This document shows, piece after piece, positions 1 through 26,515 of a stretch of 64,000 nucleotides of DNA. Source of the DNA: a virus. Its lineage: Duplodnaviria; Caudoviricetes. The stretch lies in the IMG/VR virus record IMGVR_UViG_3300037047_000162, positions 3,566 to 67,565 of that record. The stretch is one strand, 5' to 3'. The notes beneath the pieces were generated by a model, which was not told the DNA's origin, made no database searches, and saw only the letters and a program-made list of their open reading frames with translations. Numbering within the stretch: the stretch's first letter is position 1; each line of letters starts with the position of its first letter. The position numbers were made by a program, and so were the translations under genes.

Positions 1-636
1 TTCCTTTAGGTGAAATAAAAATGCCATTTTTTGGTGTAATAACAACATATCAGGCTACACAAGTCTCGATAGTCATTTTTACGAGCCGATATCTGCGTGG
101 GACGGGCGCTAGAAAAGCGACCCCAAACCTGATTACGCTGTTGGAGGGGAATGCCCGTTCTGGTCTCCTCGATCACCGATCACACCACAACCGGGCACCA
201 CCTGACATCTGAACAAGCATACCTTATACATGAACGCATGAATAGTTAGTTGGGGGGTTGGGTAAATCGCAAATCGGTAGACTACCGTTTTGCGCCGAAG
301 AGCAGCCGAAATAGCCGTTCACAAGCCCGGCAGTCTGCACTGAACGAAAGTCCCAAGATGTCGCCTAGGCCGAAAATTGGCTGTTTCGAGCCGGATTTTT
401 CCGACCGCGAGTTCGCGTATCGTCGCTGCGATATCCGACCGCGGGCCGAACCCTATCAAGGGATCTTGGAATGTCCGGATTTCGCTGCGACCTGTTGACA
501 GGCAGGAGGTTGCGTCCTCCAATCATGGGGACGGGTTGTCGCGATAGGGTGTCACTTCAGCGGCATATCGCGGATACGTCGGGTGATTACCGGTTTCGGT
601 AAATCAGTGGTTCGGCACACAGAAACGGAGGTCGCT

Positions 637-2094
637 ATGAGTGGTCCGGAAGAGAGGCGGGCAGAGGAACTCAGTCACTTGGTCCGAGAGTTTCTCGCAG
701 CCAGTAAAACGGGTATATCGGACGATGGCGAAGTCCGTGAAGACGAGAAAAGGGATGACTATGAACTCGCATCATCAATTATCAAGGCGTGCAAGGGACT
801 CGGTAAACTGAGGTCACTTTGCTCTCCAGAGGAATTCGAGAGAATCCTCTTGCTTGCCCACAACTACGGAAACCGATGGTCTGTAATGAGCGAAGCGTTT
901 GCTGAGATTGGCACGTCGAGGACCATAGGCCGCCTCATATTCGGACTCTACCAATCTTCCTATCCGGACGAAGTGAGTCGGTCCAAGTCTGCGCTCATTA
1001 CCGCTGGAAAGAAGGCCCACGTTTATCTTCTGCGTCACCTCGCCGAGGACAGAAAGAACCGAGAGTGGTGGATTCCCGTGAGAAGAGCAATCCTGGACGT
1101 ATTGGCTGCGACCGGTGATGGGGAATGTATCCCGACGATAGAGGCTGTCATGCGAGCGGACTCATCCGTACATGCTGAGGCACAAGCCGCTCTTGCCGCT
1201 ATCACCGGGGCGCGTGGAGCGGAACGAAGCCCGACGATAGAGGCTGTCATGCGATCGAACTCATCGGGACCAACTGAGGCACAAGGCGCTCTTGCAGCAA
1301 TGACTGGAGCACGCGATGCGGAACTGGGACTCCATCTGGCGGCGACGAAAGGGGATACTGGGGCAATCCAAGCATTGTTGGCCAAGGGACGTGATGTGAA
1401 CGAGCGGGAGTCCAGGGGTGGAGCCACCCCCCTGCATATGGCAGCGTCATCCGGCCAGCTCAGCGCCGCAGGGCTGCTGCTCGACAACGGAGCTGAGATC
1501 GACGCCAGGGCGCGGGACAAGGAGGGGTGGACTCCCCTTCACGCCGCAGCCCATCGCGGCCAGGCAGAGATGATCGCTTTTCTCATTAGCCGAGGCGCCA
1601 GCACTGAGGCACAAGACAAGGAAGGATGGACGCCGCTTCACGCGGCGGTTGACGGGCACCACGCGACTGCGGCAGAGCAACTCCTCAAAGGAGGAGCGAA
1701 GGTGGATGCGAGAGCATTCGGTGGAGGTGCGACCCCCCTCATTGCGGCAGCTGCAACATCTGGTGCCACTTCCGTAGCACGTGTCCTGGTCGAGCACGGC
1801 GCGAACATCGAGGCTAGGGATTCCGACGGGGGCACACCCCTCCTATGGGCGGCCTTTCGGGGCAATGCTGATACGGCAAGACTGCTTCTCGGACACGGTG
1901 CCGACCGCACTGCCACGACGAGGGGAGGCATGTCAGTGCGGTCGGCACTTGCGCAAACCGGCAACGCGTCGTTGCTGGATGCCCCGCAGAGCTTGGGTTC
2001 TTCGCGAACACGACAGACCGCTCCGGCGAAAGTTCAAGAAGCGCCTCGGGGGGCCGTTACGGCCACAAGGAAATGGTGGCAGTTCTGGAAATGA
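637..2094 (+). CDS. Ankyrin-repeat protein with N-terminal HEAT-like region
   Basis: Repeated G.TPLH.AA..G motifs. GGAGG RBS lies before ATG 637. Ends KWWQFWK. Confidence 0.9.
   Translation: MSGPEERRAEELSHLVREFLAASKTGISDDGEVREDEKRDDYELASSIIKACKGLGKLRSLCSPEEFERILLLAHNYGNRWSVMSEAFAEIGTSRTIGRLIFGLYQSSYPDEVSRSKSALITAGKKAHVYLLRHLAEDRKNREWWIPVRRAILDVLAATGDGECIPTIEAVMRADSSVHAEAQAALAAITGARGAERSPTIEAVMRSNSSGPTEAQGALAAMTGARDAELGLHLAATKGDTGAIQALLAKGRDVNERESRGGATPLHMAASSGQLSAAGLLLDNGAEIDARARDKEGWTPLHAAAHRGQAEMIAFLISRGASTEAQDKEGWTPLHAAVDGHHATAAEQLLKGGAKVDARAFGGGATPLIAAAATSGATSVARVLVEHGANIEARDSDGGTPLLWAAFRGNADTARLLLGHGADRTATTRGGMSVRSALAQTGNASLLDAPQSLGSSRTRQTAPAKVQEAPRGAVTATRKWWQFWK
1131..1323 (+). repeat. 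Intragenic 99-bp (33-aa) tandem duplication
   Basis: CCCGACGATAGAGGCTGTCATGCGA starts at 1131 and 1230; PTIEAVMR...AQ.ALAA.TGAR occurs twice. Confidence 0.9.
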
Positions 2095-2103
2095 GCGCGA
2101 CGA

Positions 2104-2161
2104 GCCGAACCAAGGAGTGCAGGCGACGCGGTATCCGCGCGCCTGACTCCTGTCGTTACTG
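2104..2161 (+). other. attC recombination site (58 bp)
   Basis: R'' GCCGAAC; arm AGGAGT(G)CAGGCG(A)CGCGG pairs with CCGCGCGCCTGACTCCT leaving two extrahelical bases; R' GTTACTG. Confidence 0.9.
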
Positions 2162-2851
2162 AACAGTCGATCTGGCGGCCCGCCAGTCAACTCCGGAGAT
2201 TCTCGCCGCTCGGTCCTGGCGGCCGCAGAAGTGATAGATGGAACGGGTCATGCACTTAGGAAGATCGGGGCGCCAGCTCGTGTTGGCGTGGGTTTGGTTC
2301 CAGCGATCGGCGAGCAGCTGGTGGAATTGGAAGTTGACGCAGAGGACGCATAGGACGGATTGGTCGCCGAGGCCCCAGGCGGGGAATTTGTGGGTGCGGC
2401 CGATGGCTCGCCAGAGACGGAACCAGGGGAGCAGTTGACGTGGGCCGTAGAGTAGCATCCCCGCGTTGATGCACTGGCGGCCGCCTGGTTGTCGTAGGCC
2501 GAGGTGCTTTGACCAGCGACGGGTTTGGTTGGAGAGCCAGCGCTCGAGCCGGTACTGCCTGGGATGCTGCAGGTCTCGACAAACGCCCAGGCGGCCCGGA
2601 TCGCACTCGGTGAACGGGCTCGGGCAGTCTTCGGCAATGAGCATGTCGGCGTCGATCTGCAGGACGTGATCGTAACGCAGCAGATGGTCGATGGCGAAGG
2701 TCTTCTGCCACCAGAAATGGCAGTCGGCCAGGGGCTCGCGGAATGCGACAAGATCGGCGCCCCATCGCTCCGCGGCGCTCTGGTACGACTCAAGGGACTT
2801 GGGGTGAAGCACTCCGTCTCCGATCGCAAGGGTTGCGATGCAGTTGGTCAT
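2156..2851 (-). CDS. GT-A fold glycosyltransferase (GT8-like)
   Basis: WWQK...VLQIDADML (DxD), INAGMLL, GDQSVL motifs. ATGA overlap with the upstream gene sets the start at 2851. Confidence 0.75.
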   Translation of the reverse strand: MTNCIATLAIGDGVLHPKSLESYQSAAERWGADLVAFREPLADCHFWWQKTFAIDHLLRYDHVLQIDADMLIAEDCPSPFTECDPGRLGVCRDLQHPRQYRLERWLSNQTRRWSKHLGLRQPGGRQCINAGMLLYGPRQLLPWFRLWRAIGRTHKFPAWGLGDQSVLCVLCVNFQFHQLLADRWNQTHANTSWRPDLPKCMTRSIYHFCGRQDRAARISGVDWRAARSTVQ

Positions 2852-3552
2852 GCGGAATCCCTGAAGGCGTGGCGGAGGCATTGGCCGAGGAAGGTGGGGC
2901 TGGCCATTAGATGGTGCTCGGGGTGGCGGGCGAAACGGCGGTAGACGATGTGATTGATCGGCCAAAGAACGGCGGAGGAGGGGTTAAGCCCTCGGCCTCG
3001 ACAGCACATCATTCGCGGAATGTTGCGGTAGAGGAACGGATAGTAGGGGCGGTCGGGAAGTTCGACCGATCTGCTGGGGTCGGTTGGGAAGGGGATGTGG
3101 GCACGCAGTAGACGATTCAAGGGGGTTTGCCTGCGGTAGGTGCGCATGACGTGGGAGTAGCGGCGGTACGCTTCGGCAAAGATCGGACTGCCGGCACGGC
3201 CGCCGAGCGGGGTCTCGCGGGCAGCGAAACCGGGGTTGCGGACGCCTACCAGGTCGTGGTCGGCGGCCAATGGTGCGAGTTCGATCGGGGCGGTGCAGAT
3301 GGTGTCGGCGTCGACCCAGACGCCGCCGTGCTGCCAGATGAGCCATACGCGAAGGAGGTTGGTGCGGAAGGCGGGTGTCAGCGGGCGTGTGATCGAGCGG
3401 ACTTCGGCGCTGGCCGGCATGGCAGCTACGTCGGCGGGGCCGATCAGACGAGCGGTGGGGTTGTGCCGCTGGATCGAGCGGATGCACAAGTCGACCAACG
3501 GCGGTTTGGGGCCTTCCCAGTAGAGCCAGATGGGCGGGATGTCATTGGTCAT
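2848..3552 (-). CDS. DxD glycosyltransferase (GT32 / capsular-synthesis-like)
   Basis: IWLYWEG...CIRSIQRHNP...LRVWLIWQHGGVWVDAD. Confidence 0.8.
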   Translation of the reverse strand: MTNDIPPIWLYWEGPKPPLVDLCIRSIQRHNPTARLIGPADVAAMPASAEVRSITRPLTPAFRTNLLRVWLIWQHGGVWVDADTICTAPIELAPLAADHDLVGVRNPGFAARETPLGGRAGSPIFAEAYRRYSHVMRTYRRQTPLNRLLRAHIPFPTDPSRSVELPDRPYYPFLYRNIPRMMCCRGRGLNPSSAVLWPINHIVYRRFARHPEHHLMASPTFLGQCLRHAFRDSA

Positions 3553-3555
3553 TGG

Positions 3556-5070
3556 TCAGTGGTTGGCGCTTACGTGGCGTTTGCTGGGGTCGATGGCGCC
3601 GGCCGCGGTGGCGAGTTGGTCGGCGGTGGGCTGCAGGCCGATCCAAGCGGTGAGTTGGGCCAGCTGGCCGGCGGGATCGGTCAGTAGGTCGTCGTAGGCC
3701 ACGCGGTACACCTGGTCGGGGATCTCGGCGGCGAGGGCGTCGCGACCTTGGGCGAGCCAGCGTTGATGGGCGGCGATCGCCTCGGCGGCTAGGCCGGTGG
3801 CGTTGGTCCGGCGAATGAGGCTGTCGATGGATTCCTGGATGGGGCGGTCGGCGATGATGATGCGGAGGCCGTCGCCGCAGATCGACCGGAGTTGACGGCC
3901 GGCTTGACAGAGCTGGGGATACTTGATGGCGGGGAGCATACCGCGGCTTGCAGATTCTCGCTGGCGGGCTTCGATGAACGCTTTGAGGTGGCGCCAGAGC
4001 CAGCGACGGGGGCGGGAAAAACCAGCGGGCTGACGCCAGCCGCTCGCCGGGGAGGGGATGGAACCGGCGGGCTGACGCCAGCCGCTCGCCGGGGATGGGA
4101 TGGAACCGGCGGGCTGACGACGGTCGGTCGCCGGGAAGGGGATGGCTTGTTCCATGATGGTGGCAAGGTGCTTGTGCTCGCCGCCCTTGGCGGGCGAGTG
4201 CTTGCCCCAGTAGCCGATCAGCTCGCCGGGTTCGCCGAACCAGAGGCCGCAGTGCCAGAGGGCTTGGGCGAGCGCGGATGATCCGGAGCTGTGTAGGCCG
4301 AGGATGGCTACGCACGATGGCGGCGGGAGGGACGAGCGGCGGTCGTCGGCGGACGCGGACGCGGCAGAACCGGCGGGCTGACGCCGGCCGCTCGCCAAGT
4401 GCTCGGCGGGGCGCCAGAAGCGTTCGGGGGGCGTCTTGCCGTTGATGTTGCTCTTGCCGCTGGCTTGGCCGACTAGCCATTCTCCGGGGCAGTAGATGCG
4501 GTGTTTGCGCTGCTGATGGAGTCGGCCGAGGTGATGGTCGATGTGGTTGCGGCGGTGCCAGTCGTGGCGCAGGAGGTGATGGTAGACAACTTGGAGCATG
4601 TCGCCTTGCAGGGCAAAGGCGTGGGTGCGGTTGACGTTGTAGGGCTGGTAGACGCCGGGGTGGATTTCGACGGGCGGGTGCCGCGCGGCGAAGAGGTGCT
4701 GGCCGCCGAGGTAGAGCATTTGCCAGTCGGCGGGGACGGTGCGGAGCCAGTCGAGAGCGCGGGCGGTGAAGCCGGGCGGGAAGAGGGCGTCGTCTTCGAG
4801 GATCAGGATCGAGCGGACGGCGTCGTTCAGGGCGGATTCGATGATCTGCAGATGGCTGCGATAACAGCCCCAGGCACCGCCGCCGCTGGTCCAGTGCTCG
4901 GGATGTCTGACTCGCTGGCCGTCGATCGCCGGGATGCGGATGGGCATGGGCCAGGGCCAGTCGGCGGGGAGCCCCTCGGCGAATCGACGCCAACGGTCGG
5001 GACGGCGGTCGAGGTTGATGCAGACGACGCGGGCGAAGGCGTGTTGGGGGTCTTGGATCGTGGTGGTCAT
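3556..5070 (-). CDS. GT25-like glycosyltransferase fused to P-loop sulfotransferase-like domain
   Basis: N-terminal INLDRRPDRW, GCYRSH, LILEDDA. C-terminal ILGLHSSGSSALA (5'-PSB-like), IIADRPIQES, VAYDDLLTDP. Confidence 0.8.
   Translation of the reverse strand: MTTTIQDPQHAFARVVCINLDRRPDRWRRFAEGLPADWPWPMPIRIPAIDGQRVRHPEHWTSGGGAWGCYRSHLQIIESALNDAVRSILILEDDALFPPGFTARALDWLRTVPADWQMLYLGGQHLFAARHPPVEIHPGVYQPYNVNRTHAFALQGDMLQVVYHHLLRHDWHRRNHIDHHLGRLHQQRKHRIYCPGEWLVGQASGKSNINGKTPPERFWRPAEHLASGRRQPAGSAASASADDRRSSLPPPSCVAILGLHSSGSSALAQALWHCGLWFGEPGELIGYWGKHSPAKGGEHKHLATIMEQAIPFPATDRRQPAGSIPSPASGWRQPAGSIPSPASGWRQPAGFSRPRRWLWRHLKAFIEARQRESASRGMLPAIKYPQLCQAGRQLRSICGDGLRIIIADRPIQESIDSLIRRTNATGLAAEAIAAHQRWLAQGRDALAAEIPDQVYRVAYDDLLTDPAGQLAQLTAWIGLQPTADQLATAAGAIDPSKRHVSANH
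4021..4396 (+). repeat. Four in-frame REP-like repeats (ACCGGCGGGCTGACGCCAGCCGCTCGCC) inside the GT25/ST gene
   Basis: Copies at 4021, 4063 and 4105 (42-bp period) and at 4369, translated as GWRQPAGS/GRRQPAGS. Confidence 0.9.
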
Positions 5071-5148
5071 GGGGCGGTTGCGGTGGCGTCGGTTGCGGTG
5101 GCAGGGTGGACAGGGCATTTGGTTTACCGGCGGCTAGCGCCTTGCCGC

Positions 5149-5724
5149 TCACTGGGCGCGGCGGATGGATTCGTCGATCAGGCTGCCGTAGACGTCGGTC
5201 AGGTCGAGACGCCAGGCGATGCCGGTCGAGACGGCCTTGGCGGCGGCGCGGGCGACGTCGAGCCAGCCGTATTCTTTGGCGTTGGTGCGCATCGCGGCGA
5301 TGATGTCGGTACGGGCCAGTCTGCAGCCGACGGCGCCCCAGGCGTTCATTCGCTCGGCCAAGCTCAGGCAGTTGCACGTGGGCTTGTGCTGGATGCCCAG
5401 TTCGGCCAGCAATCGCCACAGCTGGCTGCCGGGTTCGGTGCCGTGCATGATCTCGTTTAGCCGGACGCTGGGCTGCTGTGCAGGCTGGCGTGGCAAGAGG
5501 TGGCCGTGGTCGCGCATGATTCGCTGTCTCACCTCGGGCCTGTCGCGAGTCTGGGCCAGTGCGAGGCTGACGATTACCTCGTTGATTTGCTGCGGCGGAT
5601 CGGCCTTGTGCGTGCAAAACTCGCAGGCCGTCTTGTGCGGACGCGGGGCGGCGTCGATGTCGTACTGTTGACACAGCTGGCGGGCCAGATGGCAGACGTC
5701 GATGAATAGGTGTTTGCAGGTCAT
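5149..5724 (-). CDS. Hypothetical Cys-containing phage protein (tail-distal region)
   Basis: Continuous ORF in the late operon with CxxC motifs; function not recognised. Confidence 0.6.
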   Translation of the reverse strand: MTCKHLFIDVCHLARQLCQQYDIDAAPRPHKTACEFCTHKADPPQQINEVIVSLALAQTRDRPEVRQRIMRDHGHLLPRQPAQQPSVRLNEIMHGTEPGSQLWRLLAELGIQHKPTCNCLSLAERMNAWGAVGCRLARTDIIAAMRTNAKEYGWLDVARAAAKAVSTGIAWRLDLTDVYGSLIDESIRRAQ

Positions 5725-5732
5725 ATTTATTC

Positions 5733-7322
5733 CTACGGTTTGAAGCACGCACCTCCACTCGCTTGTTGGCCGACGTACCAACCGTTGCTGATCGGTGGAT
5801 TACAGGTACATGTCTGCCCGTCGATGGGCCAAGAGTAACATTGATTGATTGTGAGATCCCAACTGCTGCCATTCCATGTCCACCAGCAGTCTCCGGCACA
5901 GTCGTAGACGCCATTGTCGGAATCGTTGCCGTCGCTGCCGGAAGAATCGCTGCTGTCGCTACTGGAATCGCTGGGCGGCTGGTCGCTGCTGGAATCGCTG
6001 CTGGAATCGCTGTTCGAGACGTCGTTCGAGTCGTTGTTCGAGTCGTTGTTCGAGTCGTCGGAATCGCTGGGCGGCTCGTCGCTGCCCGAATCACTGGGCC
6101 GTTGGTCGCTGCCGGAGTCGCTGGGCGGCTGGTCACTGCTGGAATCGCTGGATTCATCGCACGGTCCCCAGCACGTGCCCTCGACTATCTGACCGGTGTA
6201 ATCGGGAAGTTCCCCCGGCGGCTCGCAATAGCACGGCGCGGCACAGGTCGTACCATCTTCGAGAAGGTACCAGACGCCAGATCCACCGCTATACAGACAC
6301 GTGCCGTTACAGGGGCAAGGCGACTCGCTACCGGAGTCGCTCGGTGGCGCGTCGCTGCCGGAATCACTCGGTGGCTGGTTGCTGTCGGAATCGCTCGCGC
6401 TCGTGCTGTCGCTCGTCGAGTCCGAGCTGCTGTCGTCGCTGGATGAATCCGACCTGCTGTCGTCGCTTGATGAGTCGGAGCTGTCGGACGAATCGCTGGA
6501 CGAATCGCTGCTGCTGTCATCGCTCGACGAATCGCTGGACGAACTGCTTTCGTCACACGACGGGTCCAGGGCGAGGGGCAGCCAGTCGTCGCTGGGTTCG
6601 AGTCGGACGGTGGTGTTGGCTTCGATGGACTCACAGGTGGCGTTGTAGGCGGTGACGGTGAGAAACCTGCCCCAAGCATCCGTCAGCAGGCATTGCTGGC
6701 CGATGAAGCCGGTCGGGCCGTAGAGGCTGACCGGTCCGCTGCCGAGCATCAGGCAGCGTCGGCCGCGGCGGGCGGCGGGGATGCCCGATCGGCCGACTTT
6801 GGCGACCACGCTGCGATTGTCGGCGTGGCCGATCTTGATGTGGCAGAGCTGCTCGCCGGTGACCGTGGGCGCGTTCAGCAGCTCCATCGGTCCGAAGAGG
6901 CCCGACTGGACGGTCGAGCCGCCGTAGGGGAACGCTCGACGGTGCCAGGTGGCGATGACGTTGACGTAGGCGAGCGAGACGCCACTGATCTGGGCCGGTC
7001 CGATCTTGCCGGCGGGTAGCGGGTCGAGTAGGACGCAGAGGATGTAGTTGCGGTTGGCGTCGCCCAGGCCGGTGGCGGTGATCCAGGGATGCTCGCGGGT
7101 AAGCGTGGTCAGCAGTCGCGTCTTGGTCACGGCCAGCACGTCGCCGCGGCGTTTGTCGGTCCCGGAGGCGTTGCGGACCATGATCACGTCGGTTTCGACC
7201 GGCTGCTGGCGTTCCGGGGGCCGGTCCGAGCCACGCTGATACGCGGCGACCGCGGCTGCAGTCGCGTTGTGCTCGGCGGCGGTGGGCGGTTTCCAGGTCT
7301 GTTTTGGTCGAACTTTTCGCAT
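5733..7322 (-). CDS. Putative tail-tip/fibre protein with Ser/Asp-rich repeats and Cys-rich modules
   Basis: Follows the tail genes. Two long S/D tracts (SSDQPPSDSGSD units) alternate with CPCNGTC...CAAPCYC and CAGDCWW...CTCNPP modules. Confidence 0.7.
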   Translation of the reverse strand: MRKVRPKQTWKPPTAAEHNATAAAVAAYQRGSDRPPERQQPVETDVIMVRNASGTDKRRGDVLAVTKTRLLTTLTREHPWITATGLGDANRNYILCVLLDPLPAGKIGPAQISGVSLAYVNVIATWHRRAFPYGGSTVQSGLFGPMELLNAPTVTGEQLCHIKIGHADNRSVVAKVGRSGIPAARRGRRCLMLGSGPVSLYGPTGFIGQQCLLTDAWGRFLTVTAYNATCESIEANTTVRLEPSDDWLPLALDPSCDESSSSSDSSSDDSSSDSSSDSSDSSDSSSDDSRSDSSSDDSSSDSTSDSTSASDSDSNQPPSDSGSDAPPSDSGSESPCPCNGTCLYSGGSGVWYLLEDGTTCAAPCYCEPPGELPDYTGQIVEGTCWGPCDESSDSSSDQPPSDSGSDQRPSDSGSDEPPSDSDDSNNDSNNDSNDVSNSDSSSDSSSDQPPSDSSSDSSDSSGSDGNDSDNGVYDCAGDCWWTWNGSSWDLTINQCYSWPIDGQTCTCNPPISNGWYVGQQASGGACFKP

Positions 7323-17228: not shown

Positions 17229-17355
17229 GGGTGGGGTCCTTGTTTCAAATCGTTGAACAGCAGGGAACGGAGGGAACGGAGTGGCGAGGGGGGCGATTTA
17301 GGGGCGCGCCGACTTCGGCACACACGGCCAACAAGTAGGCCGTGCCACACCGACG

Positions 17356-18708
17356 TTAATCGCACGGGACGCTGGCGTTGAAGGCGGCGAGGTAGGCGAG
17401 GTGTGCGTCGGGGTGCTGGACGACACAGGCTCGGGTGGCTTGGGCGAGGGTCTTGCCGGTTTGCTGCTCGGCTTCGATCAGCGCGTTCCAGTTGGCGATG
17501 GCGTCGGGGTCGATCGACGGCGAGCTTTTGCCGGTGGCTTTGGTGCCGACGGCCTCGACGCCGGGGCGCTGCTGGGCGGCGACGATCCGCCTGTTCTGCT
17601 CGGTCATCCAGGCGGTCTGCGCCTGGGCGAGGGTCGCGCCGGCGGCGAGCTGCGAACAGAGGAACGCCGGGTCCGCGCCGACACAGCCGGCGACGAGTTC
17701 CTGGTAGGACGCGGGACCGGCGACCGGGGGCTTGGCGAGTTGGGGTTGCGGGGCTGCGGGGGGCACTTCGATGGCCAGGGCGGCATCGACGGCCGTTTCG
17801 ACGAGCGAGGTTTGCATCGGTTCTCTCCTTGGTTTGACTTGGGATTGGAGTTCGGATAACGCCTGGTCGAAGCTGCCGATGGCGTCGATCAGGCCCAGTG
17901 TTTTGGCTTCGGCGGCGAGGTACGCGCGGCCGTCGGCCAGCTCGCGGACCCGCGCGGCGGTGAGCATCGAGCGGCCTGCGGTTACGCCAGCCAGGAAATA
18001 CTCGTTCAGCCCGTCCACCGTTCGTTGCATCTCGGTCAGATGCTCGGCGGTGATCTCGGTACCGGGGGTGCCGGCGCCTTTGAAGGCCCCGGCGCGGATG
18101 ACGTGGACCTTCACACCCTCCATCGCGGCCATGCCGCTGGTGTCCTGGACCACGCCATACGTGCCGATCGAGCCGATCAGGGCCGTTTCGTTGGCGATGA
18201 TCCGCGAGGCTTGCGAGGCCGCCCAGTAGGCGGCGCTGGCGGCCATGTCCTCGACGTAGGCCCAGACGGGTTTCTTGGCCTTGGCGGCGGCGATCTCGTC
18301 GGCCAGCTCTTTCGTGCCGGCAGCCGTGCCGCCGGGTGAGTCGATCCGCAGTAGGATGGCGCCGATGTCGGGGTCACTTGCGGCGGCTCGGATGTCGCGG
18401 CGGGCCTGGACGGTGGATGTGCCGCCGCCCATGCTGGCCTGCTGCTTCATCAGCTTGCCGGTCAAGCTAATCATCGCCACGTCGCCGGTTGTGTCGCTGC
18501 GTGAAAAGGGGACAGGACCCTTTTGCCGGAACGGCCCGGAGGGTGCTTCGCACAAAAGGGTCCTGTCCCCTTTTCGCGCAGCCTGCTGTTGCAGATGGAT
18601 GTGCAAGTCCGTCTTGCGGAACAGCTCGAGCGTTTGCGTGAGCGCGTCGGGCAGGATCGCCCACGGGCCGATCCACTGCTCGTAGTAGGGAACTTGCAGT
18701 TCAGTCAT
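17356..18708 (-). CDS. S49 (SppA / lambda gpC-like) prohead protease with C-terminal scaffold region
   Basis: ILLRIDSPGG, MAASAAYWAAS, IGSIG motifs. Confidence 0.92.
   Translation of the reverse strand: MTELQVPYYEQWIGPWAILPDALTQTLELFRKTDLHIHLQQQAARKGDRTLLCEAPSGPFRQKGPVPFSRSDTTGDVAMISLTGKLMKQQASMGGGTSTVQARRDIRAAASDPDIGAILLRIDSPGGTAAGTKELADEIAAAKAKKPVWAYVEDMAASAAYWAASQASRIIANETALIGSIGTYGVVQDTSGMAAMEGVKVHVIRAGAFKGAGTPGTEITAEHLTEMQRTVDGLNEYFLAGVTAGRSMLTAARVRELADGRAYLAAEAKTLGLIDAIGSFDQALSELQSQVKPRREPMQTSLVETAVDAALAIEVPPAAPQPQLAKPPVAGPASYQELVAGCVGADPAFLCSQLAAGATLAQAQTAWMTEQNRRIVAAQQRPGVEAVGTKATGKSSPSIDPDAIANWNALIEAEQQTGKTLAQATRACVVQHPDAHLAYLAAFNASVPCD
18503..18575. repeat. Perfect 23-bp inverted repeat (MITE/REP-like) inserted in frame in the S49 gene
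   Basis: GAAAAGGGGACAGGACCCTTTTG ... CAAAAGGGTCCTGTCCCCTTTTC with a 27-nt loop; translated KGDRTLLCEAPSGPFRQKGPVPF. Confidence 0.9.
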
Positions 18709-20374
18709 CGTCACCCTCGTTGGCTGGTTTCGGTTCGTTGGCCGGGGCGGGTTTCGAGGCGGGGCGTGACCGGCTCTTGTTGCCGGGCGTCCCGCGCTGC
18801 TGGACGCTGACCTGCACGCCTTCGGGCATCGGCCAGGTCAGGATGTCCCGCCAGGTGAGATCGAGCCCCAGGCGGGCGTTCAGCTCTTCGGCCTTGGCGT
18901 GGGCCAGCTCGATCCGCGCCCCGTGGTCGGCGACGATCTCTTCCGTCAGGTCCCCGAAGTCGATCCCGCGCGAGGCCGCCAGCCGCCGCGGGGAGGACAG
19001 CAATCCCTTGGCCTGCAGGATGTCAGCCGTCGCGTCGTCCACCGGTTGGATGTAGGGCAGCTCCTGAGCGTGCCACACGTGGGCGAACGGGTTGACTTCG
19101 CCGGCCGGGATGTAGCCGAGGGACGCGCGGAGGGAATCGGCACGCTCGACGGCCTTGCGAAGCGCACTGTCGGTCACGGCCCACTGGCGGACTTTCCATT
19201 CGTACACGGGACCGTGGAACGAGGTCATCATCCAGGACTGGATTTCACGCCACCGCTGGCGGGCCTGGTCGATCGCGCCCCGGAAGCCGCTGTAGTTCGT
19301 CTCGCTGGCGTCCAGCAGGAACACGCACAGCGGCAGGTCCAGATTCACGGCGAGGATGCCCAGCAGCATCTGCGAGTGCTCGAAGAATTGCAGCCCCGGC
19401 AGCGTCGGGACGAAGCCCCGCAGCCGCTCGCCCTTGTACCCGTAAATCTCGAACCCGGGCGCGATGTCGGTCAGGGTCCGCGTCTCGCCGTCCGGCCGCG
19501 TTTCGGTGGTTTCGCTGTGGTCCCCACCGCCGGCGAATGGCAGGACCGGGGCTCCGGCGTCCATTTCGCGGAGGATCGTGTAGCAGGATTGGATCTTGGC
19601 GGCCACCAGGTTGGCGAACTGCAGGTCGTCCCAGTGGTCGGCCGTGTCCGCCATCGGGGCGAAGGCCGTCACACCGCGGGTCTGGCTGCGGCGGTCCGGC
19701 AGGTAGTGGTGGAACACCTGGCGGCGTCCTCGCTGGTCGCGAGCGGGGATCTGCGTGATGTCGTTCACGCGGGTGACCGAGCGCCAGGGCTCGATGTCTT
19801 CCTTCGTGAACCAGTAGGCCAGGCGTCGGCGCCGTTCGTCCTGCTGGACCCCATGCACGACGTTCTTGGTCGTGTTGCGAGGCGTCTTGAGCCGATGCCC
19901 TTCCTGCGATTCGATCCCGCCGTCTCGATTCGGCAGCGAGCAGATGTCGCCGTCGATGATGACGTGCTGGAGGGTCAGCTTCTCCATCCCGTGGAAGTCG
20001 AGTTCCTGCTGATCGTCGCAGGCTTCGGGCGAGCGGGACCATTCGGCCCAGCGGTAGCCGTTCACGTCGTCGATGGCCTTGTCGCCGCTGTCGCTGTCCA
20101 GCACGAAGCCGCGGCCCACGACGTTGGCGACCAGGCGGCGGACGCCCTGCATGACCAGCGGGTTGTTGCGGGTCATTTCGCGGGCCATTTCCATCGCGCC
20201 GAAGTAGGCGGACTCGGTGCGGTAGTGGTAGTCGGCGTGGGAGCCCAGCGTCATGATGCCGGTCTTGGTCCGCTTGTACCGCGAGGCTTTCCCGATATCG
20301 TAGTCGGACTTCAGCTCGGCGAACTGCTCCAGGATGCTGCCCGCCATGCTTTGTGGTCGGCGTTTTGCAGTCAT
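18701..20374 (-). CDS. Portal protein (lambda gpB family)
   Basis: AREMTRNNP, IDGDI, QTRGVTAFAP, DASETNYSG.R, PYIQPVDD; ATGA overlap sets the start at 20374. Confidence 0.92.
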   Translation of the reverse strand: MTAKRRPQSMAGSILEQFAELKSDYDIGKASRYKRTKTGIMTLGSHADYHYRTESAYFGAMEMAREMTRNNPLVMQGVRRLVANVVGRGFVLDSDSGDKAIDDVNGYRWAEWSRSPEACDDQQELDFHGMEKLTLQHVIIDGDICSLPNRDGGIESQEGHRLKTPRNTTKNVVHGVQQDERRRRLAYWFTKEDIEPWRSVTRVNDITQIPARDQRGRRQVFHHYLPDRRSQTRGVTAFAPMADTADHWDDLQFANLVAAKIQSCYTILREMDAGAPVLPFAGGGDHSETTETRPDGETRTLTDIAPGFEIYGYKGERLRGFVPTLPGLQFFEHSQMLLGILAVNLDLPLCVFLLDASETNYSGFRGAIDQARQRWREIQSWMMTSFHGPVYEWKVRQWAVTDSALRKAVERADSLRASLGYIPAGEVNPFAHVWHAQELPYIQPVDDATADILQAKGLLSSPRRLAASRGIDFGDLTEEIVADHGARIELAHAKAEELNARLGLDLTWRDILTWPMPEGVQVSVQQRGTPGNKSRSRPASKPAPANEPKPANEGDDD

Positions 20375-20664
20375 CCTCGGAAGTTCTCCATCGACAGGTA
20401 ACGGACCCGCCCGCTGCCAGCGCCCGTGGTTGCGGGGTGGGCATCTTTCCACCGCTGGGCCGCTTCGATTTCGGCTTGCAGGGATTCGCGGGTGAACGTC
20501 TGCGGGCCACGCCCGGCGGACAGGGGCAGCCGATTGCGCAGGATGCGGCAGGCGGTGATGAAGGCGTCGGCCTTCGCGCGGCTGCTGTCCTCTTCATACG
20601 AAGCGTTGTCGTCGTATGCGGCGAGGACTTGGGCGTCGGTCGAATTGCTGCTCAGCGTGGCCAT
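20371..20664 (-). CDS. gpW-like head completion protein
   Basis: Small ORF between terminase and portal positions, translationally coupled to the portal gene. Confidence 0.6.
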   Translation of the reverse strand: MATLSSNSTDAQVLAAYDDNASYEEDSSRAKADAFITACRILRNRLPLSAGRGPQTFTRESLQAEIEAAQRWKDAHPATTGAGSGRVRYLSMENFRG

Positions 20665-21020
20665 GAACTGAGCATGAAGAAATCCGGGCGGGGCGTAAAG
20701 ACAAATGGGGGTTATACCGGAGGTATATCTGGCGGGACCGCAGAATCGACGCTGGCGGACGTGGGGGATCCTGCGAGCGCGTTCTGCCGCCGAGACCAGC
20801 GGCAGAATACTCACACCCGTTCGGATGGGATTGGACGCAAGGCACAGCGATTCCGCCGCTTAGGATGTCCAGCTGTTTACTGGCGATTGCGTATTCTGCC
20901 GCCGGAAAGTCACTCCATAAAACCGATGGCCATTCGAGGGGCCGCTGGAGAGGTATCGCCTGCATGGTATATGGACCACATAAAACGCGTACCCAGTCGA
21001 AGGGAATTCGCCGCAACAGC

Positions 21021-21049
21021 TTGCCAGACAGCCGCTTCTTCGCTAGGCT
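21021..21049 (+). promoter_or_regulatory. Sigma70-like promoter upstream of the cassette array (Pc-like)
   Basis: TTGCCA-N17-TAGGCT. Confidence 0.5.
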
Positions 21050-21232
21050 CATGACTCGGTCGATGAGCGTTCTGTGGCCAAAATCGCCGCAGTAACTAAT
21101 TATTGGTCCCGTAGAATTAGAAGTTCGTCCGCAGAACCCGGGGCCGCTGAAATCTCCGTTGGCCAGACGCCACGGTTCCCGGCATCGCTGGCTTCGGCCG
21201 GATCTGTCCGCTATCGCATCCTCTGTGTCCTA

Positions 21233-21302
21233 TTGAACAGGAGGCAACAAAGACAACAGAGGCATGCCCTGGTCTCCGTTACCTTTGTTTCCTCCTGTTC
21301 AA
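21233..21302. repeat. Long imperfect hairpin (REP-like) inside cassette 1
   Basis: TTGAACAGGAGGCAACAAAG...CTTTGTTTCCTCCTGTTCAA. Confidence 0.8.
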
Positions 21303-21521
21303 AATTTACCTGCCCTTGGCCGCGCCGTTGGCGATTCCAAGAAAAAATCCTGTTGAAAGACCGTCCGGTCGGCTACGCTGCAGGGCTCCGATGTACTCTT
21401 CCCGCTATCGCATTCCCGGAGCCGCAGAAAAACGTGCGGCTCGTCTAGCAAAACCAAGCCATCCCGGCGATGGCCCGGCCTGCCCTGAATGTCCCGCGTC
21501 CACGTCCACGGCAAAAGACGA

Positions 21522-21550
21522 TTGCCGCCGCGCCGGCCGTGCGGTAAGAT
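21522..21550 (+). promoter_or_regulatory. Sigma70-like promoter inside cassette 1, pointing at cassette 2
   Basis: TTGCCG-N17-TAAGAT. Confidence 0.55.
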
Positions 21551-21611
21551 GACGGTCGTTCGACTGGGCGACGGTCGCCCAGTCCCGTGCCGGCCGCGGA
21601 CGAACCGTGCG

Positions 21612-21701
21612 GACGAACCAAACGATGCACGCCAGCGGCGGATGGGATCGGGCGGCATGGAAAGCGTTTTGACCGCCGCGGCGTGATCGCGGTCGTTATG
21701 T
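21612..21701 (+). other. attC site of cassette 1
   Basis: R'' GACGAAC; arm GAT(G)CACGCC(A)GCGGCGG pairs with CCGCCGCGGCGTGATC with two extrahelical bases; R' GTTATGT. Confidence 0.92.
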
Positions 21702-21725
21702 CCCTTAACAGCTTTGAGACCCACC

Positions 21726-22196
21726 ATGTATCGAATTCTTGCATGTCTACTTGCTGCGTCGGCATTGATCGGATGCGGCGAAAGGCCGACGAGTCAGGAC
21801 CCGCTGGCGACGCCATCCCGCACGTCCGCACCACCGCCCACCGTCGTCCTCGAAGAGGCGAACGAACCCGTCGCCACGAACGTCACGGCCGAGCTAACGA
21901 CCGAACAGACTGACTTTGGCAATGAATGGAAAGCGTCATCCACGGAAGAGCGTCGAAGAATGGCGGATTTGGCCAAGGTGTACCCGCTATTTCAAGGCGC
22001 AACGAAGCCTCAGATCAAGGCGGCGCTCGGCGTGCCTTCCGGGGCGGGGATTGACCGATTCGGTGATGACGTGATGCGCTACGAACTTGGGGATGTGCCG
22101 GGCGCCGACGGCGGCGGTAAGTACCATTTGACGTTTGTCTTCAAAGATGACGTGGTTGTTACTGTAATGGGAAACTTTATCTCGATATCGCCTTGA
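21726..22196 (+). CDS. Lipoprotein with BamE/SmpA-like C-terminal domain
   Basis: Signal peptide with lipobox LIGC; TKPQIKAALGVP...MRYELG...LTFVFKDDVVVTV. Confidence 0.7.
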   Translation: MYRILACLLAASALIGCGERPTSQDPLATPSRTSAPPPTVVLEEANEPVATNVTAELTTEQTDFGNEWKASSTEERRRMADLAKVYPLFQGATKPQIKAALGVPSGAGIDRFGDDVMRYELGDVPGADGGGKYHLTFVFKDDVVVTVMGNFISISP

Positions 22197-22224
22197 ATCG
22201 ATTGGACATAACCAGTCGCTGGAC

Positions 22225-23031
22225 GTGCGGACTGGAAATGGTTTGTTGACAAGCGGGTGTGAACCCCGCCGGAGTAGCTCCTAGCCAGAGGCTCCGTATC
22301 GAGTGTTGCAGCGTTGGTATAAGGGCGGCAAAGTGGGTGGTAACCAGACACTCCTCCGAAGTCCAGCGTTGAAGCGTACACAGAAAGGACGCGAGGATGA
22401 ATGGACCGGGCGTAGCCGTCCGGCTGTGAATGGTATTGAGCTCCGAAATCTTGGTATCTATCGGATCCTGCCCAGGGCGTGTCCATACCTGAAGGCCACA
22501 CCGATCACCGCGTCTTGGCAAGCGGTGATCGGAGACCCGGAGTCGAAGGCCCATTCGCGTGTCACATCATGTCAGCAAGGCAACCAGTGAGGCCCTGAAG
22601 TTCTTGGACGCATCATGAAGACCAATCATGCCCGTCCGAGTATGCCCGACAAGCCTCGCAAGCAAGGGAGGCAAATGACAACAGGGAGTCCGAAGGATGC
22701 GAAGTACCGTTGAAGCTCGACAACCGATCGAGTGGATCGAAGCCGGGTAATGCCGGTGCAGGGAAGGCATCCAAGCCAGTGCGCGTGGCGACCGAGACGC
22801 CCTCCGGACACAGTGCCGGACTTTGGGCGATTTTCCGGCGTCCACGCAGCGGGCGTCAAGCCCGCAGGTGCTGGTGGGGAGCCGGGTGCGTTAACGGCGC
22901 ACGCCCGGTTCTGGGAGGGGCCAGGGGTCAATTGGACAGGGATCAAATATTGTGACACCACCAGAGGAAACGGGTGGCAACGGGGAATACAAACTTCGTC
23001 CTAAATCGCAGAGCCGTACACCCTACTCGCC
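22225..23031 (+). ncRNA. Group II intron without an intron-encoded protein (~807 nt)
   Basis: 5' GTGCG; DII/DIII-type GAAGTACCGTTGAAG...CCGGGTAATGCCGG.GCAGGGAAGG; domain V GAGCCGGGTGCGTTAACGGCGCACGCCCGGTTC (22879-22911, AGC triad); DVI ending CCCTACTCGCC. No RT ORF is present. Confidence 0.9.
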
Positions 23032-23111
23032 GGGAGCGGCGGCATCCCGGCTGTTTGAAATGGAAGCGTCATGGGCCGCCGCCCCCGTGATGCCTATTCG
23101 TTCCGCGTCGG

Positions 23112-23552
23112 CTATGGCCTTTCCTGTAGCTGCTCGATCAGCCACACCACGGCGTCGTTGCGATTGAAGACTTTTCGACCGTTGGCGAGCTTCGCCCCGG
23201 TCTCCTTCAGGCCCCACCAGAGGCGATGTAGGAGGTTGCGGCCGGTGTGACTGCGGCTCTTGATGAGCTGCAGGTTGACGTGGGCTTTGCAGAACGAGGG
23301 CGTGCCGTCCAGGCCGGGCGGGTTGTCGCACAACGGGACCTCGATCAGCACGGTTTTGATCTGGCGGATGATTTGCTGGACCGACGGAGCTGGCTGGGCC
23401 GGCTCGACGGGGGGCGGCACGTCGGCTTGCTGGTCGGTCAGCGTGATGTCGGGCAGAGGCTCGGGCTGCGCCAGTTCCGGGGCGGACTCCGGCGTGGGGC
23501 TGGGCAGGGGCGTAACGGCTAACGAGTCTTTGTTTACGGTCACTCGGGGCAT
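23112..23552 (-). CDS. Hypothetical phage protein
   Basis: ORF downstream of the terminase with a Pro-rich N-terminus; function unknown. Confidence 0.55.
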   Translation of the reverse strand: MPRVTVNKDSLAVTPLPSPTPESAPELAQPEPLPDITLTDQQADVPPPVEPAQPAPSVQQIIRQIKTVLIEVPLCDNPPGLDGTPSFCKAHVNLQLIKSRSHTGRNLLHRLWWGLKETGAKLANGRKVFNRNDAVVWLIEQLQERP

Positions 23553-23578: not shown

Positions 23579-23630
23579 AAAAAGGGGGACAGGCACCGAT
23601 CGTCCTGAACGGAGCCAGTCCCCGTTTTTC
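23579..23630. repeat. Imperfect GGGGACAGG...CCAGTCCCC palindrome related to the 18503 element
   Basis: AAAAAGGGGGACAGGCACC ... GGAGCCAGTCCCCGTTTTT, intergenic. Confidence 0.7.
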
Positions 23631-25833
23631 AACGGGGTTGAATCCATGAAGTTCCGGACGGGGTGTCTTGGTCTCGGGGCGGGGGTTTTTTGGCGGGTTT
23701 GGTCGGGGAGTTTTGTTTGGGGCGGATGGTCCACAGGCCCCAGATGGTGCGGGCGGCGATGGCGTAGGCGGTGGCGTCGAGGTAGTGGTTGGCTTTCTGG
23801 CTGCGGAGGTGGCCGGGGCGGGAGCCTTCGGGGACCCAGCGGTACGAGCCGTTGGGTTGCTTCTGCCACTCTTCGCTGAGGATGTGGCCGGCGTAGTTCT
23901 GGTGCCGCTGCCATTTCTCGCGGCCGGCTTCGTCGCGCGGGGGTGTGAACAGGGCGAGGCTGCCGACGGTGCCGAACGGCTGGAGGAAGCCGTGGTGAAC
24001 TTTCAGCTTCCAGGCGTCGGCGTCCAGGTCGGCGAGCCAGATGCCGTTGTTGTAGGACAGGTTGCACTCGGGGAGGGGCACTACGGTCTGGCTGGCGTTC
24101 CGCTGCTGCCACGGCGAGCGGCCTTTGCAGGGGAGGATGCCGCGGAAGCCGGCCTGGGCAGCCAGGATGTAGACGGGCTCGACGCCCCATTGCTTGTCTT
24201 TCCAGCCGCTGTCAATCAGCGTCAGGTCGGGGACCCAGCCGGTGCCTTCGCGGTCGTCGAGCTGGCCCCAGGGATGCGTGCGGATGCCGTCCCACCAGGT
24301 TTGCAGGCCGTCCAAGACGAGCTTTTCGCAGGCGGCGGCCGGGCGGCCCTCGGTGGCGAAGGGGACGAACGAGAAGTCGATGATGCTGCCGGCCGCGGCG
24401 TCGGACCAGGCGATGGTCACCACGTGCAGGCCGTTTAGGTTCACGTCGGCGCCGCAGGTCAGGGCGATCGTGTCGTCGGGGACCACGCCGCGTTCGTGGC
24501 CGGTGCGGCAGTTGGCGCGGATGTGGTACGTCGTCAGATACAGCTGCTGGGCGTCGACTTCGGCGGGCGGATCGTTCTGGTACTCGGTCAGGAAATGCTC
24601 CAGGCCGCGGTCGGCGATGATATTGTAGGCGTGCTGGAGCGACGAGTTTTCCAGGGGCGTGCCGTCGGGGGCCGGGTCGGTGATGTACCGCGACGGGTTG
24701 CCCGTGACGGCGCCGGCGTCCATTTCGGCTCGGTGGTCGAGGTAGAACTGGTTCGCCCCGCGGGCCGTGTCGTCGCCGGTGTTCTGGTTGGTCTGCCGAG
24801 CTTCGATGTAGCGGTCCCAGAGGTCCTTGCGGTCCGGCCAGACGATGATGAACTGCATGCGACGGCCCTTCCAGGACGGTTTGCGGGCGCGGTCGATGTA
24901 GGTGGCCGAGAGGCTGTAGCTGCTCATCGTCGTGGTGAGCATCACGCGGGCCAGCCGCTTGCCGGGGCCGCCCAGTCCGGCCAGGTCTGCTTCGATCGTG
25001 CGGGCGCGGAGGTCCGTCTGGACGCCGCTGCGGGCCGAGTCGCGGGTTTCCGGATCGTCGATGATCACCAGATCGGGGCGTTTGGTGCCGACCAGCACGC
25101 CGCGGATCGCGGAGTCGAGCCCGCGGGTGGTGATGACGGCCCCGCTGCCCAGGGACTGTTGGCCGGGGCGCAGACGCGGATCCCAATGGTCCGGCACGCG
25201 GACGGTGGGCAGGACGATGTAATCCTGCGCCCACTTCAGAAACGTCCGCTTGCCGTTGGCCGTCTGCGTGGCTCCCCGCTGGGCGGTTCCGTCCAGGGCC
25301 AGGATCGGATCGCAGATTTCGGGGTAGTCGTCGGCCAGGGCCTGGTTGCGCTCGAGCTGGTACTTGATGTTGGCCAGGATCTGCTCGGCGTTGGGGCCGG
25401 TGGCGGCGGCGATCAGCGGGAACGAGAGAATCCCGTGCATCACGCAGTAGATCGTCACGCACTGGACGATCGAGGTCTTGCCCTCGCCGCGCGGGGCGGC
25501 AATCGCCTGGTCGCCGCCGTAGCGGGCCGCGTTCAGGATGGCGGCGACCATTTCCCGGCGTTGGTCGGTCCAGTCGCCCCAGAACACGTCGGGGAAGTAG
25601 CAGGTCAGGAACGCGTAGATGTCTGCCGAGTTGGCCAGGCGGCGCTGGACGTCGGCCGGATCGCGGATCTTGACGTCCTTCAGCGATGCCCGGATCTTGC
25701 GTTTGCGCAGGGCGTCGGCCACGCGGATGCCGGCCTTCTTGTCGTCGCCGGCCAGGCCGGTGATTTGCTCGACCTGCCGCTTCAAGTCGGAAACCGACTG
25801 CTGGCGTTTCTGGATTTCGGCTTTGAGCGTCAT
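23629..25833 (-). CDS. Large terminase subunit (lambda GpA-like)
   Basis: Walker A APRGEGKTS, VIIDDPET, GADVN nuclease motif, ANHYLDATAYA. Confidence 0.9.
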   Translation of the reverse strand: MTLKAEIQKRQQSVSDLKRQVEQITGLAGDDKKAGIRVADALRKRKIRASLKDVKIRDPADVQRRLANSADIYAFLTCYFPDVFWGDWTDQRREMVAAILNAARYGGDQAIAAPRGEGKTSIVQCVTIYCVMHGILSFPLIAAATGPNAEQILANIKYQLERNQALADDYPEICDPILALDGTAQRGATQTANGKRTFLKWAQDYIVLPTVRVPDHWDPRLRPGQQSLGSGAVITTRGLDSAIRGVLVGTKRPDLVIIDDPETRDSARSGVQTDLRARTIEADLAGLGGPGKRLARVMLTTTMSSYSLSATYIDRARKPSWKGRRMQFIIVWPDRKDLWDRYIEARQTNQNTGDDTARGANQFYLDHRAEMDAGAVTGNPSRYITDPAPDGTPLENSSLQHAYNIIADRGLEHFLTEYQNDPPAEVDAQQLYLTTYHIRANCRTGHERGVVPDDTIALTCGADVNLNGLHVVTIAWSDAAAGSIIDFSFVPFATEGRPAAACEKLVLDGLQTWWDGIRTHPWGQLDDREGTGWVPDLTLIDSGWKDKQWGVEPVYILAAQAGFRGILPCKGRSPWQQRNASQTVVPLPECNLSYNNGIWLADLDADAWKLKVHHGFLQPFGTVGSLALFTPPRDEAGREKWQRHQNYAGHILSEEWQKQPNGSYRWVPEGSRPGHLRSQKANHYLDATAYAIAARTIWGLWTIRPKQNSPTKPAKKPPPRDQDTPSGTSWIQPR

Positions 25834-25840
25834 GGTCGTA

Positions 25841-25914
25841 GGTCGGAAGTCGGAAGTCGGAGGGCAGAGGGCAGGGCGAGTGGTGCTTGGTGCTTGGTGC
25901 TTGGTGCTTGGTTT
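25841..25914. repeat. Heptameric tandem repeats (GTCGGAA, GGTGCTT x4)
   Basis: Read directly; similar heptamer tracts at 8161-8192, 33677-33711 and 34269-34300. Confidence 0.75.
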
Positions 25915-25919
25915 GGGCG

Positions 25920-26015
25920 GCTGGGATTCGTTTTGGCTGCGTTGGGGGTGGTTTGGGGGTTCTGACTGCTGGTTTTCGTTTGGTTGCGTGGGAAGCGACG
26001 TTTTGCTCGTGGAAA
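25920..26015. repeat. ~95-bp dispersed element, second copy at 32309-32404
   Basis: Shared GCTGGGATTCGTTyTGGCTGCGTTGG...GGGGGTTCTGA...GCGTGGG...CGACGTTTTGCTCGTGGAAA. Confidence 0.8.
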
Positions 26016-26515
26016 CCGGCGGCTGGCGACCGCTGGGGCTGCCGGAGGGGCATTGGTTGCCGGGGTTTGACAAAAAAAGCCGCATTCCCGACGGGACGCG
26101 GCTACGAAAAAAGGGAGCGGCCGCGCCTCGTGGTGAGGCGTGCAACTCCCCATGATGTTAATCTAGCATGTACCGGGAGTGTTTTGCAAGGCAGTCCGAA
26201 AGAAGCGGGGCCTGACCGTCAGCATGTTCTGTAGGTCGATGCCGTCCTTGCTCCACCACTTCCACCGTAGTTCAGCTTTCAGTTCGACGAGTTCTTCTTC
26301 CATCGCCTTGGCATACCGTTGCAGCCACTGGTTTGGCAATATCGCGTACACGTTCCGTGCCCCGCCGACGTCCCCGGCCGTCAAAGTGCTGTTGGCTAAG
26401 GAGCAAGGCCAGTGGAAGGTAGAGCGGTTGACAGTGGAGTGAGTCTTCCGATTTGCTATACTGCCAGCCAGCGATGTCTCTCCCGCAGGTTTCCTTCAAT
26501 CCCCGGCAGCTGAGC

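Follow-up and report, generated by a model that had tools for sequence, protein, structure and literature searches.

A probable integrase-less integron platform in the terminase–portal region of a temperate Pirellulaceae phage

Integrons are usually tied to chromosomes, transposons and plasmids. Here, we analyzed a stretch of phage DNA (positions 3,566–67,565 of the 67.6-kb IMG/VR record IMGVR_UViG_3300037047_000162, ~65% G+C; these 64,000 nt are hereafter called the window), which very probably carries an integrase-less integron platform in the packaging and head-gene region, antisense to the late genes and with cassettes that would be exchanged by integron integrases (IntI) of the host. The source virus is a temperate phage of Pirellulaceae (Planctomycetota); all terminase relatives found in genomes were located within metagenome-assembled genomes (MAGs) of this family. 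An earlier, sequence-only reading of the window had proposed an integrase-less mini-integron between the terminase and portal genes, and this proposal is supported by the homology of its promoter/attI module to host integrons, by a family of attC sites and by the turnover of cassettes among relatives. In the following, L-numbers denote related phage, host or metagenome loci, G001–G004 are host MAGs and C stands for a contig (e.g. G003:C23). The features of the locus are collected in Table 1.

The segment ahead of the cassettes corresponds to the 5' conserved segment of an integron without its intI gene and is common to the phage relatives L003 and L015 and to 19 metagenome contigs. Positions 20889–21152 of the window match host sequence G003:C23:112836–113099, which lies 0.6 kb upstream of, and divergent from, an intact intI gene. 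The identity between the module and C23 amounts to 94.8% over 20990–21124 and 97.5% over 21085–21124, and falls to ~70% just past the crossover. Metagenome contig L072 shows the same intI–module layout as C23, followed by a different first cassette; its IntI is 99% identical to that of C23 and is in two pieces, possibly frameshifted. These alignments show homology between the promoter/attI module of the phage and the intI-proximal part of chromosomal integrons in the hosts (C23, L072). The TTGCCA-N17-TAGGCT hexamers and the AT-rich inverted repeat ending in G|TT were found at the positions which the sequence-only reading had assigned to them. Both hexamers, which resemble an integron cassette promoter (Pc), are retained in C23, L003 and L015 with a variable spacer, and the arms of the repeat read AACTAATT at 21094–21101 and AATTAGAAGTT at 21115–21125. 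An interpretation of the module as coding sequence (open reading frames (ORFs) 20594–21052, minus strand, and 20865–21095, plus strand) was rejected: most substitutions relative to L024 change the encoded residue. In the host locus L024 (G003:C26) itself, a 365-nt direct repeat (93% identical, at 4658–5020 and 6786–7150) flanks three small ORFs, a host version of the module's promoter part and a 5' stump, 70 nt long, of the group II intron described below; one of these ORFs is HYD1-like as judged by eye only.

The cassettes behind this module differ between its carriers. A scan for the attI motif returned 21 contigs from public metagenomes, 19 of them with the module; in the viral collection, the same scan returned only L003. 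Conservation among all 19 contigs extends to GAATTAGAAG|T(T) and is lost completely from there on, giving at least 12 different first cassettes. The locus is thus not invariant among relatives, in line with the variable cassette content which the sequence-only reading had named as support. Portal-side phage DNA runs straight into the module in the window and in L003, L015, L074, L076, L078 and L090 (at least six distinct assemblies), so that the junction between phage and module is common to several phages while their cassettes are different. At the other end, the window, L003 and L080 have the same distal junction, GTT|CCGCGTCGGCTA, with different last cassettes. Directly behind G|TT, the phage copies begin to differ, both in how many cassettes they hold and in what these contain. 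Since relatives hold different cassettes at the same site, the phage probably ferries integron cassettes between cells. All data stem from metagenome or MAG assemblies, whose contigs often break at attC, repetitive extragenic palindrome (REP) and intron repeats, and a chimera of a phage contig with a host integron is the artefact to be considered here. It is extremely improbable, given that common junctions occur together with varied cassettes, that the array is flanked on both sides by phage genes in the window, L003, L012 and L015, and that contigs from other samples (L074, L076, L078 and L090) have the same phage–module junction.

The recombination sites of integron cassettes, termed attC, are imperfect palindromes of ~57–141 nt, in which an R'' box ending in AAC pairs with an R' box starting with GTT, separated by an unpaired spacer from an L box with extrahelical bases. 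The window and C23 become homologous again at 21511, up to an exact end at GGTCGTT (21697). A first alignment, which comprised this element, its copies on three further host contigs and the end of the L003 array, revealed a common architecture: an R'' box ending in AAC, an unpaired spacer of 3–4 nt, a 5-bp stem, a bulged G, a 6-bp stem and a bulged A, followed by a 7-bp GCGGCGG stem, a loop of ~34 nt and the return arms ending in GTCG|TT. Members of the family are 58–90 nt long with a variable loop, and their AAC/GTT architecture is that of attC. Among 22 sites, 92.8% of the cells were paired, vs 69.5% after shuffling and 25–54% with slid partners, and compensatory changes were seen in 15 of the 21 pairs, although this alignment had been fitted to the model and is thereby biased toward the structure. 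The first five sequences, aligned by MAFFT alone, already contained 7 covarying pairs.

Two covariance models, R1 and R2, were built from these alignments. The first site of the array (attC1, matched at 21605–21704) reached 98 bits with R1 and 87 bits with R2 (E ~1e-23 to 1e-25), and the other matches in the window were a short site at 2097–2164 and a partial one at 23032–23085; the check by an attC covariance model which had been put forward from the sequence alone is hereby answered by two purpose-built models that detect the window sites. Among the phage relatives, four sites were found in L003, two in L015 and two in L012, always in cargo orientation. The host MAGs contain 18–69 sites each, including arrays beside intI (G004:C410, G002:C216). 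With R2, sites were located beside intI in G003:C23 and G004:C410, and a six-site array in G002:C216 lies beside an intI match that is only partial (224 bits, below the cut-off given below). The R boxes retain AAC/GTT, and the other four positions typically read (G/C)NCG, e.g. GACGAAC or GCCGAAC. An Rfam scan of the region returned no attC-like family and only the intron, and searches for direct and inverted repeats near host intI genes did not reveal the attC family. A home-made attC scanner (R-box consensus, complementarity and folding energy) detected the aadB attC of a class 1 integron and missed most sites of the Tenderia and host arrays; it was considered insensitive and not used as evidence. 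One of the host arrays, G001:C295 (2593–5653, with plus-strand sites at 2593, 2898, 3412 and 5554), contains a match to a group II maturase (GIIM, 4419–4651, minus strand) between two attC sites, which may mark a classical antisense attC intron in these genomes.

Integron recombination takes place between the G and the TT of R'. Because the crossover lies within G|TT, a cassette in linear form should open with the complement of the R'' box that it carries. This rule holds as an exact 7/7 match in 14 cassettes with nine different variable 4-mers, namely cassettes 1 and 2 of the window, a further cassette at 611–2155 and eleven more from relatives and metagenome contigs; it does not hold for L003 cassettes 1 and 3, L012 and L080. 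In cassette 1, the pair is GTTCGTC/GACGAAC, and the start GTTCGTCCGC(A) is complementary over 10–11 nt to 21596–21605 and 21608–21618. The start of cassette 2, GTTATGTCC (21695–21703), is complementary over 9 nt to 22204–22212. The starts matching their own R'' boxes, as noted in the sequence-only reading, are therefore real. The same 2.3 kb contains 27 inverted pairs of at least 9 nt, so inverted matches alone would be weak evidence; it is the start/R'' rule in 14 cassettes together with the covariance model matches which places them far beyond chance. The number of inverted pairs would suit an ordinary accessory-gene ("moron") hotspot, in which illegitimate or homologous recombination brings in cargo and chance accounts for the GTT and inverted matches, and so would four relatives (L004, L005, L011 and L014) with other cargo and no attC of the family. 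Our own initial reading, chance inverted matches in a plain hotspot plus an intron, was overturned by the host module homology and the attC family. We consider such a hotspot highly unlikely as the explanation: the attC family is structured, covarying and common to intI-linked host arrays, the start rule recurs in 14 cassettes, and at least 12 first cassettes begin from one nucleotide. It is contradicted for this locus and may describe the attC-less relatives.

Integrases were assessed against the TIGR02249 cut-off of 265 bits. A search of the complete 67.6-kb record yielded no IntI, the best match reaching 23 bits, which agrees with the earlier statement that none is recognizable. The weak matches in the record (11–23 bits) are all ordinary tyrosine recombinases at its end, where two such genes (~60200–62900; record positions 63776–66441) are likely the phage's own integrases. 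IntI proteins above the cut-off are encoded in the host MAGs, with 443–459 bits in G003:C23, G003:C154 and G004:C14 and 387 bits in G004:C410; the C23 protein was confirmed by NCBIfam and is 50% identical to IntI1. As the phage record lacks an IntI, we infer that the phage copy is served in trans by an IntI of the host. The missing intI also means that the element is not a complete integron; it is a cluster of attC sites without an integrase (CALIN; PMC9892861) that retains attI. In the host locus L048 (G003:C154), three tandem 45-nt repeats (1320–1454) lie just past the intI start, and attC sites follow downstream on the same strand, so that intI and cassettes are co-oriented in this integron.

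Several observations weigh against an integron platform that is served by the host. The Pc-like hexamers are weak by the E. coli consensus, and a generic sigma-70 promoter scan called neither them nor a promoter-like site within cassette 1. In the hosts, the module lies 0.6–0.9 kb from intI, which exceeds the distance in class 1 integrons. The crossover reads GTC instead of GTT in L003 and L087, and the R boxes follow NNCGAAC/GTCG|TT rather than the full RYYYAAC/GTTRRRY, which may represent a lineage-specific variant. With the intron removed, only the distal stems of the second site, attC2, pair; it may be a hybrid or decayed site. Such a site may recombine poorly, and the array of this phage may be partly frozen. 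No attC of the family was found in the loci compared for five relatives (L004, L005, L007, L011 and L014); L004, L005, L011 and L014 have both flanks, with other cargo between them, which indicates that the hotspot is also remodelled by other routes.

Furthermore, whole arrays could be swapped by homologous recombination via the common module, independently of IntI. A host integron piece might have been captured a single time and no longer be recombined, with the differences between phages arising from such exchange of entire arrays. The 380-nt module common to phage and host and the degenerate terminal attC of the window are compatible with this. The metagenome contig L080 (1–5206) combines the module and one cassette with a terminal attC and 72 nt from the 3' end of the 146-aa phage gene that adjoins the terminase gene, followed by non-phage genes (haem-oxygenase-like, methyltransferase, DUF2817) and a second, inverted module copy at 4956–5118. 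Here the array has moved together with its flank, and a block of module, cassette and phage flank among non-phage genes shows that transfer by homologous recombination also occurs. Nevertheless, a fossil of this kind is improbable: a single phage–module junction and a single distal junction (window, L003 and L080) enclose cassettes that differ after G|TT, a pattern explained more simply by site-specific exchange, and intact IntI genes are present in the hosts. Recombination of the phage array by host IntI thus remains the preferred explanation.

Table 1 Features of the terminase–portal locus in window coordinates.
Feature	Position	Strand	Remarks
Portal gene, lambda type	18701–20452	minus	Pfam Phage_portal_2, E 1.5e-52
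Conserved portal-side flank of the hotspot	18701–20731	minus	portal gene, ~97-aa ORF, edge palindrome
~97-aa ORF adjoining portal	ATG at 20664	minus
Palindrome TATACCGGAGGTATA	~20716–20731		conserved; portal-side edge of hotspot
Platform module (5' conserved segment without intI)	20732–21123	plus	ends at G of the attI crossover
Pc-like hexamers	TTGCCA 21021–21026; TAGGCT 21044–21049	plus	17-nt spacer; read from sequence
attI-like site	21094–21125	plus	AT-rich imperfect inverted repeat ending GAATTAGAAG|TT; crossover 21123|21124
Cassette 1	21124–21695	plus	no convincing ORF
attC1	21612–21701	plus	R'' GACGAAC 21612–21618; L stems with bulged G and A; G|TT 21695|21696
Cassette 2 (TT...G)	21696–23100	plus	start GTTATGT, exact complement of R'' ACATAAC (22206–22212)
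Cassette 2 gene, predicted lipoprotein (156 aa)	21726–22196	plus	signal peptide ends in lipobox LIGC
attC2, 5' arm	22206–22224	plus	R'' ACATAAC, spacer CAG, TCGCT, bulged G, GAC; interrupted by intron
Group II intron, ORF-less (806 nt)	22225–23030	plus (sense)	5' GUGCG; inside L'' arm of attC2
attC2, distal half and R'	23031–23106	plus	CGGGAGCGGCGGC, loop, GCCGCCGCCCCCG, TCG|TTCCGC; G|TT 23100|23101
Phage late ORF (146 aa), adjoins TerL	23112–23552	minus	ORF list; kept in all phage relatives
TerL, gpA-type large terminase	23629–26145	minus	Pfam/PHROG hits

The first cassette of the C23 integron is a diverged copy of cassette 1, whose 3' part is conserved in C23 and C113. Both contigs have also kept a promoter-like TTGCCG-N17-TAAGAT (21522–21550) and a subsequent 23-nt palindrome (21562–21584); the ORFs of the cassette gave no Pfam or PHROG match. 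Cassette 1 further contains a REP-like hairpin at 21233–21302, a 70-nt imperfect palindrome TTGAACAGGAGG...CCTCCTGTTCAA, which is also found near 17247–17286 and forms a dispersed repeat in the hosts (>40 copies in G003, >12 in G004). The extent proposed for cassette 2 requires a correction, in that the cassette is real and its span also contains the 806-nt group II intron. Its predicted lipoprotein matched no Pfam family and yielded one weak PHROG match (phrog_3135, E 1.5e-4); a search of the four host MAGs with the window protein as query returned no match. An intact homologue of attC2 is found at L009:594–694 (...GAAC CAG TCGCT G GAC^CGGAG...), and the distal half in the window gave a partial R2 match (23032–23085, model positions 27–77, E 0.002). 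Among the products of other phage-borne cassettes are small membrane proteins, a membrane protein with a DnaJ-type zinc finger and a protein that is weakly BamE-like, below the Pfam cut-off. A second locus of the window (611–2164) holds a single cassette, which starts with G|TTCGGC at 610|611 and contains an ankyrin-repeat ORF at 637–2094. Its 58-nt attC (R'' GCCGAAC at 2104–2110, G|TT 2155|2156) reaches 47.6 bits with R2, and start and R'' form the pair GTTCGGC/GCCGAAC; the cassette recognized here by the sequence-only reading (611–2155) is thus genuine by both the model and the 7/7 start rule. Since this locus has no attI module, the cassette went in at a secondary GTT site, adjacent to a gene on the minus strand.

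The array occupies a gap of ~2.4 kb between the 146-aa ORF and the portal side. As described from the sequence alone, it is antisense to the late operon, with all its features on the plus strand and the phage genes, including an S49 protease gene beside the portal and terminase genes (Pfam/PHROG), on the minus strand, and its last GTT (23100–23102) is 10 nt away from the stop of the 146-aa ORF (23112–23114). In all relatives, homology to the window resumes at ~20728–20731. The terminase–portal gap represents a general hotspot for cargo, which extends from the palindrome TATACCGGAGGTATA to the stop codon of the 146-aa ORF. The four relatives with other cargo (L004, L005, L011 and L014) lack the module as well as the attC family. 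For example, L004 carries an antisense 940-aa NHL-repeat protein in this gap (2069–4891), and L005 an antisense 837-aa Ser/Thr kinase fused to an FGE-sulfatase domain (3090–5603).

The intron within attC2 agrees with the definition of a group II intron, which calls for D1–D4 followed by D5/D6, a 5' GUGYG and a bulged A in D6; its 5' sequence is GUGCG. D1–D4 match Rfam RF02005 at 22260–22552 (111 bits, E 1e-30, gathering score 49), and D5/D6 match RF00029 at 22877–22999 with 34.5 bits, below the gathering score of 40 (the host copy L019 reaches 42.5). The Rfam model matched by D1–D4 is D1D4-6, and papers naming the Rfam D1D4 models give no mapping to intron classes. The 5' end (22225, after the GAC of the attC) was set by four other insertion sites (L024, L025, L026 and L081), where the copies follow the equivalent three bases of other attC sites; the 3' end (23030) was set by L023 and the empty site L009, and reads GC here vs AC in the host copy. 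No reverse transcriptase is encoded in the intron (D4 of ~320 nt, no ORF), and no RVT_1 was found across the record. Full-length relatives, L081 and L088, are 87% identical in the RNA parts and carry in D4 a 499-aa intron-encoded protein, a group II reverse transcriptase/maturase (TIGR04416, 362 bits). The window intron is therefore a deletion derivative, whose movement would depend on help supplied in trans. A second, diverged ORF-less lineage (L003, L028) is inserted 2 nt away in other attC sites. In the host locus L023 (G003:C106, ~2100–2297), the intron is reduced to its last ~190 nt, and a stretch resembling a transposase C-terminus, judged from the letters, lies just upstream on the opposite strand.

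Group IIC-attC introns carry a reverse transcriptase and are inserted in the bottom strand of attC at R'' (TTGT/T), with an orientation antisense to the cassettes (PMC3001079; PMC7923331). Common to both cases is a group II intron lineage that recurs within attC sites, frequently in the cassette at the end of an array (PMC3001079; PMC7923331). In contrast to them (PMC3001079), the window intron is ORF-less and lies on the sense strand 12 nt downstream of R'', where it follows the GAC of the L'' arm, a position outside the IIC-attC type. A survey of group II introns in phages likewise describes ORF-less and intergenic introns, prophage copies with close host relatives and a proposed mobilisation in trans; the parts of that survey considered here do not describe an intron within the attC of a phage integron.

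Integron parts in phages are of a kind already known, because Qi, Rajabal, Ghaly, Tetu and Gillings (2023) described 17 CALINs, three complete integrons and one In0 from a set of 10,705 phage genomes, including a Shewanella prophage CALIN with its own attI, and proposed phages as a route of cassette transfer (PMC9892861). The earlier remark that such an element is not commonly described thus holds for the present variant and not for integrons and CALINs in phages as such. The window shares with those phages an integrase-less attC array in a phage genome, and differs from them in its Planctomycetota host, its fixed terminase–portal hotspot and an attI module that can be traced to intI-linked host integrons (PMC9892861). 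Moreover, related phages with different cassettes at the same G|TT provide evidence of turnover at the population level, whereas the previous cases were single genomes; that study included a recombination assay for some phage attC sites, while the evidence for the window is sequence comparison (PMC9892861). As in sedentary chromosomal integrons of the Vibrio type, the attC family is specific to its species group, conserved in sequence and structure and present in dozens of copies per host genome, and the cassettes are mostly of unknown function, some of them gene-less or with their own promoter; unlike in these integrons, the window copy lacks intI, resides in a phage and has NNCGAAC/GTCG|TT R boxes (PMC9892861). 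New are the planctomycete host, the fixed position between terminase and portal, the direct connection with host platforms that bear intI, the evidence from populations that cassettes turn over at an attI carried by phages, and the sense-strand attC-targeting intron.

The proposed course of events is as follows. In a host that encodes IntI, the integrase would insert circular cassettes at the phage attI (attI x attC), and cassettes could be removed or swapped by the same enzyme via attC x attC. The Pc-like hexamers, acting presumably as a promoter, and the cassette-internal promoters would drive cassette expression in the direction opposite to the late operon, presumably in the lysogen. The array would be packaged by the phage and delivered to new cells. 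An ORF-less derivative of a mobile group II intron targeting the L'' arm later invaded the terminal attC. On balance, we favour the broader view that this phage lineage keeps a fixed, intI-less attI/Pc slot, which is reloadable and served in trans by host IntI proteins, with cassettes moving routinely between chromosomes and virions, and which has been colonised by an undescribed lineage of sense-strand L''-arm introns, including ORF-less derivatives.

Reports of phage-borne integron parts are recent and deal mostly with single genomes. The locus described here offers a natural test system for the transduction of cassettes, for an integrase servicing another replicon and for the value of cassettes to the lysogen. 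The intron that targets attC from the sense strand represents a further route of interaction between retroelements and integrons. Altogether, these findings extend well-documented integron biology to the Planctomycetota.

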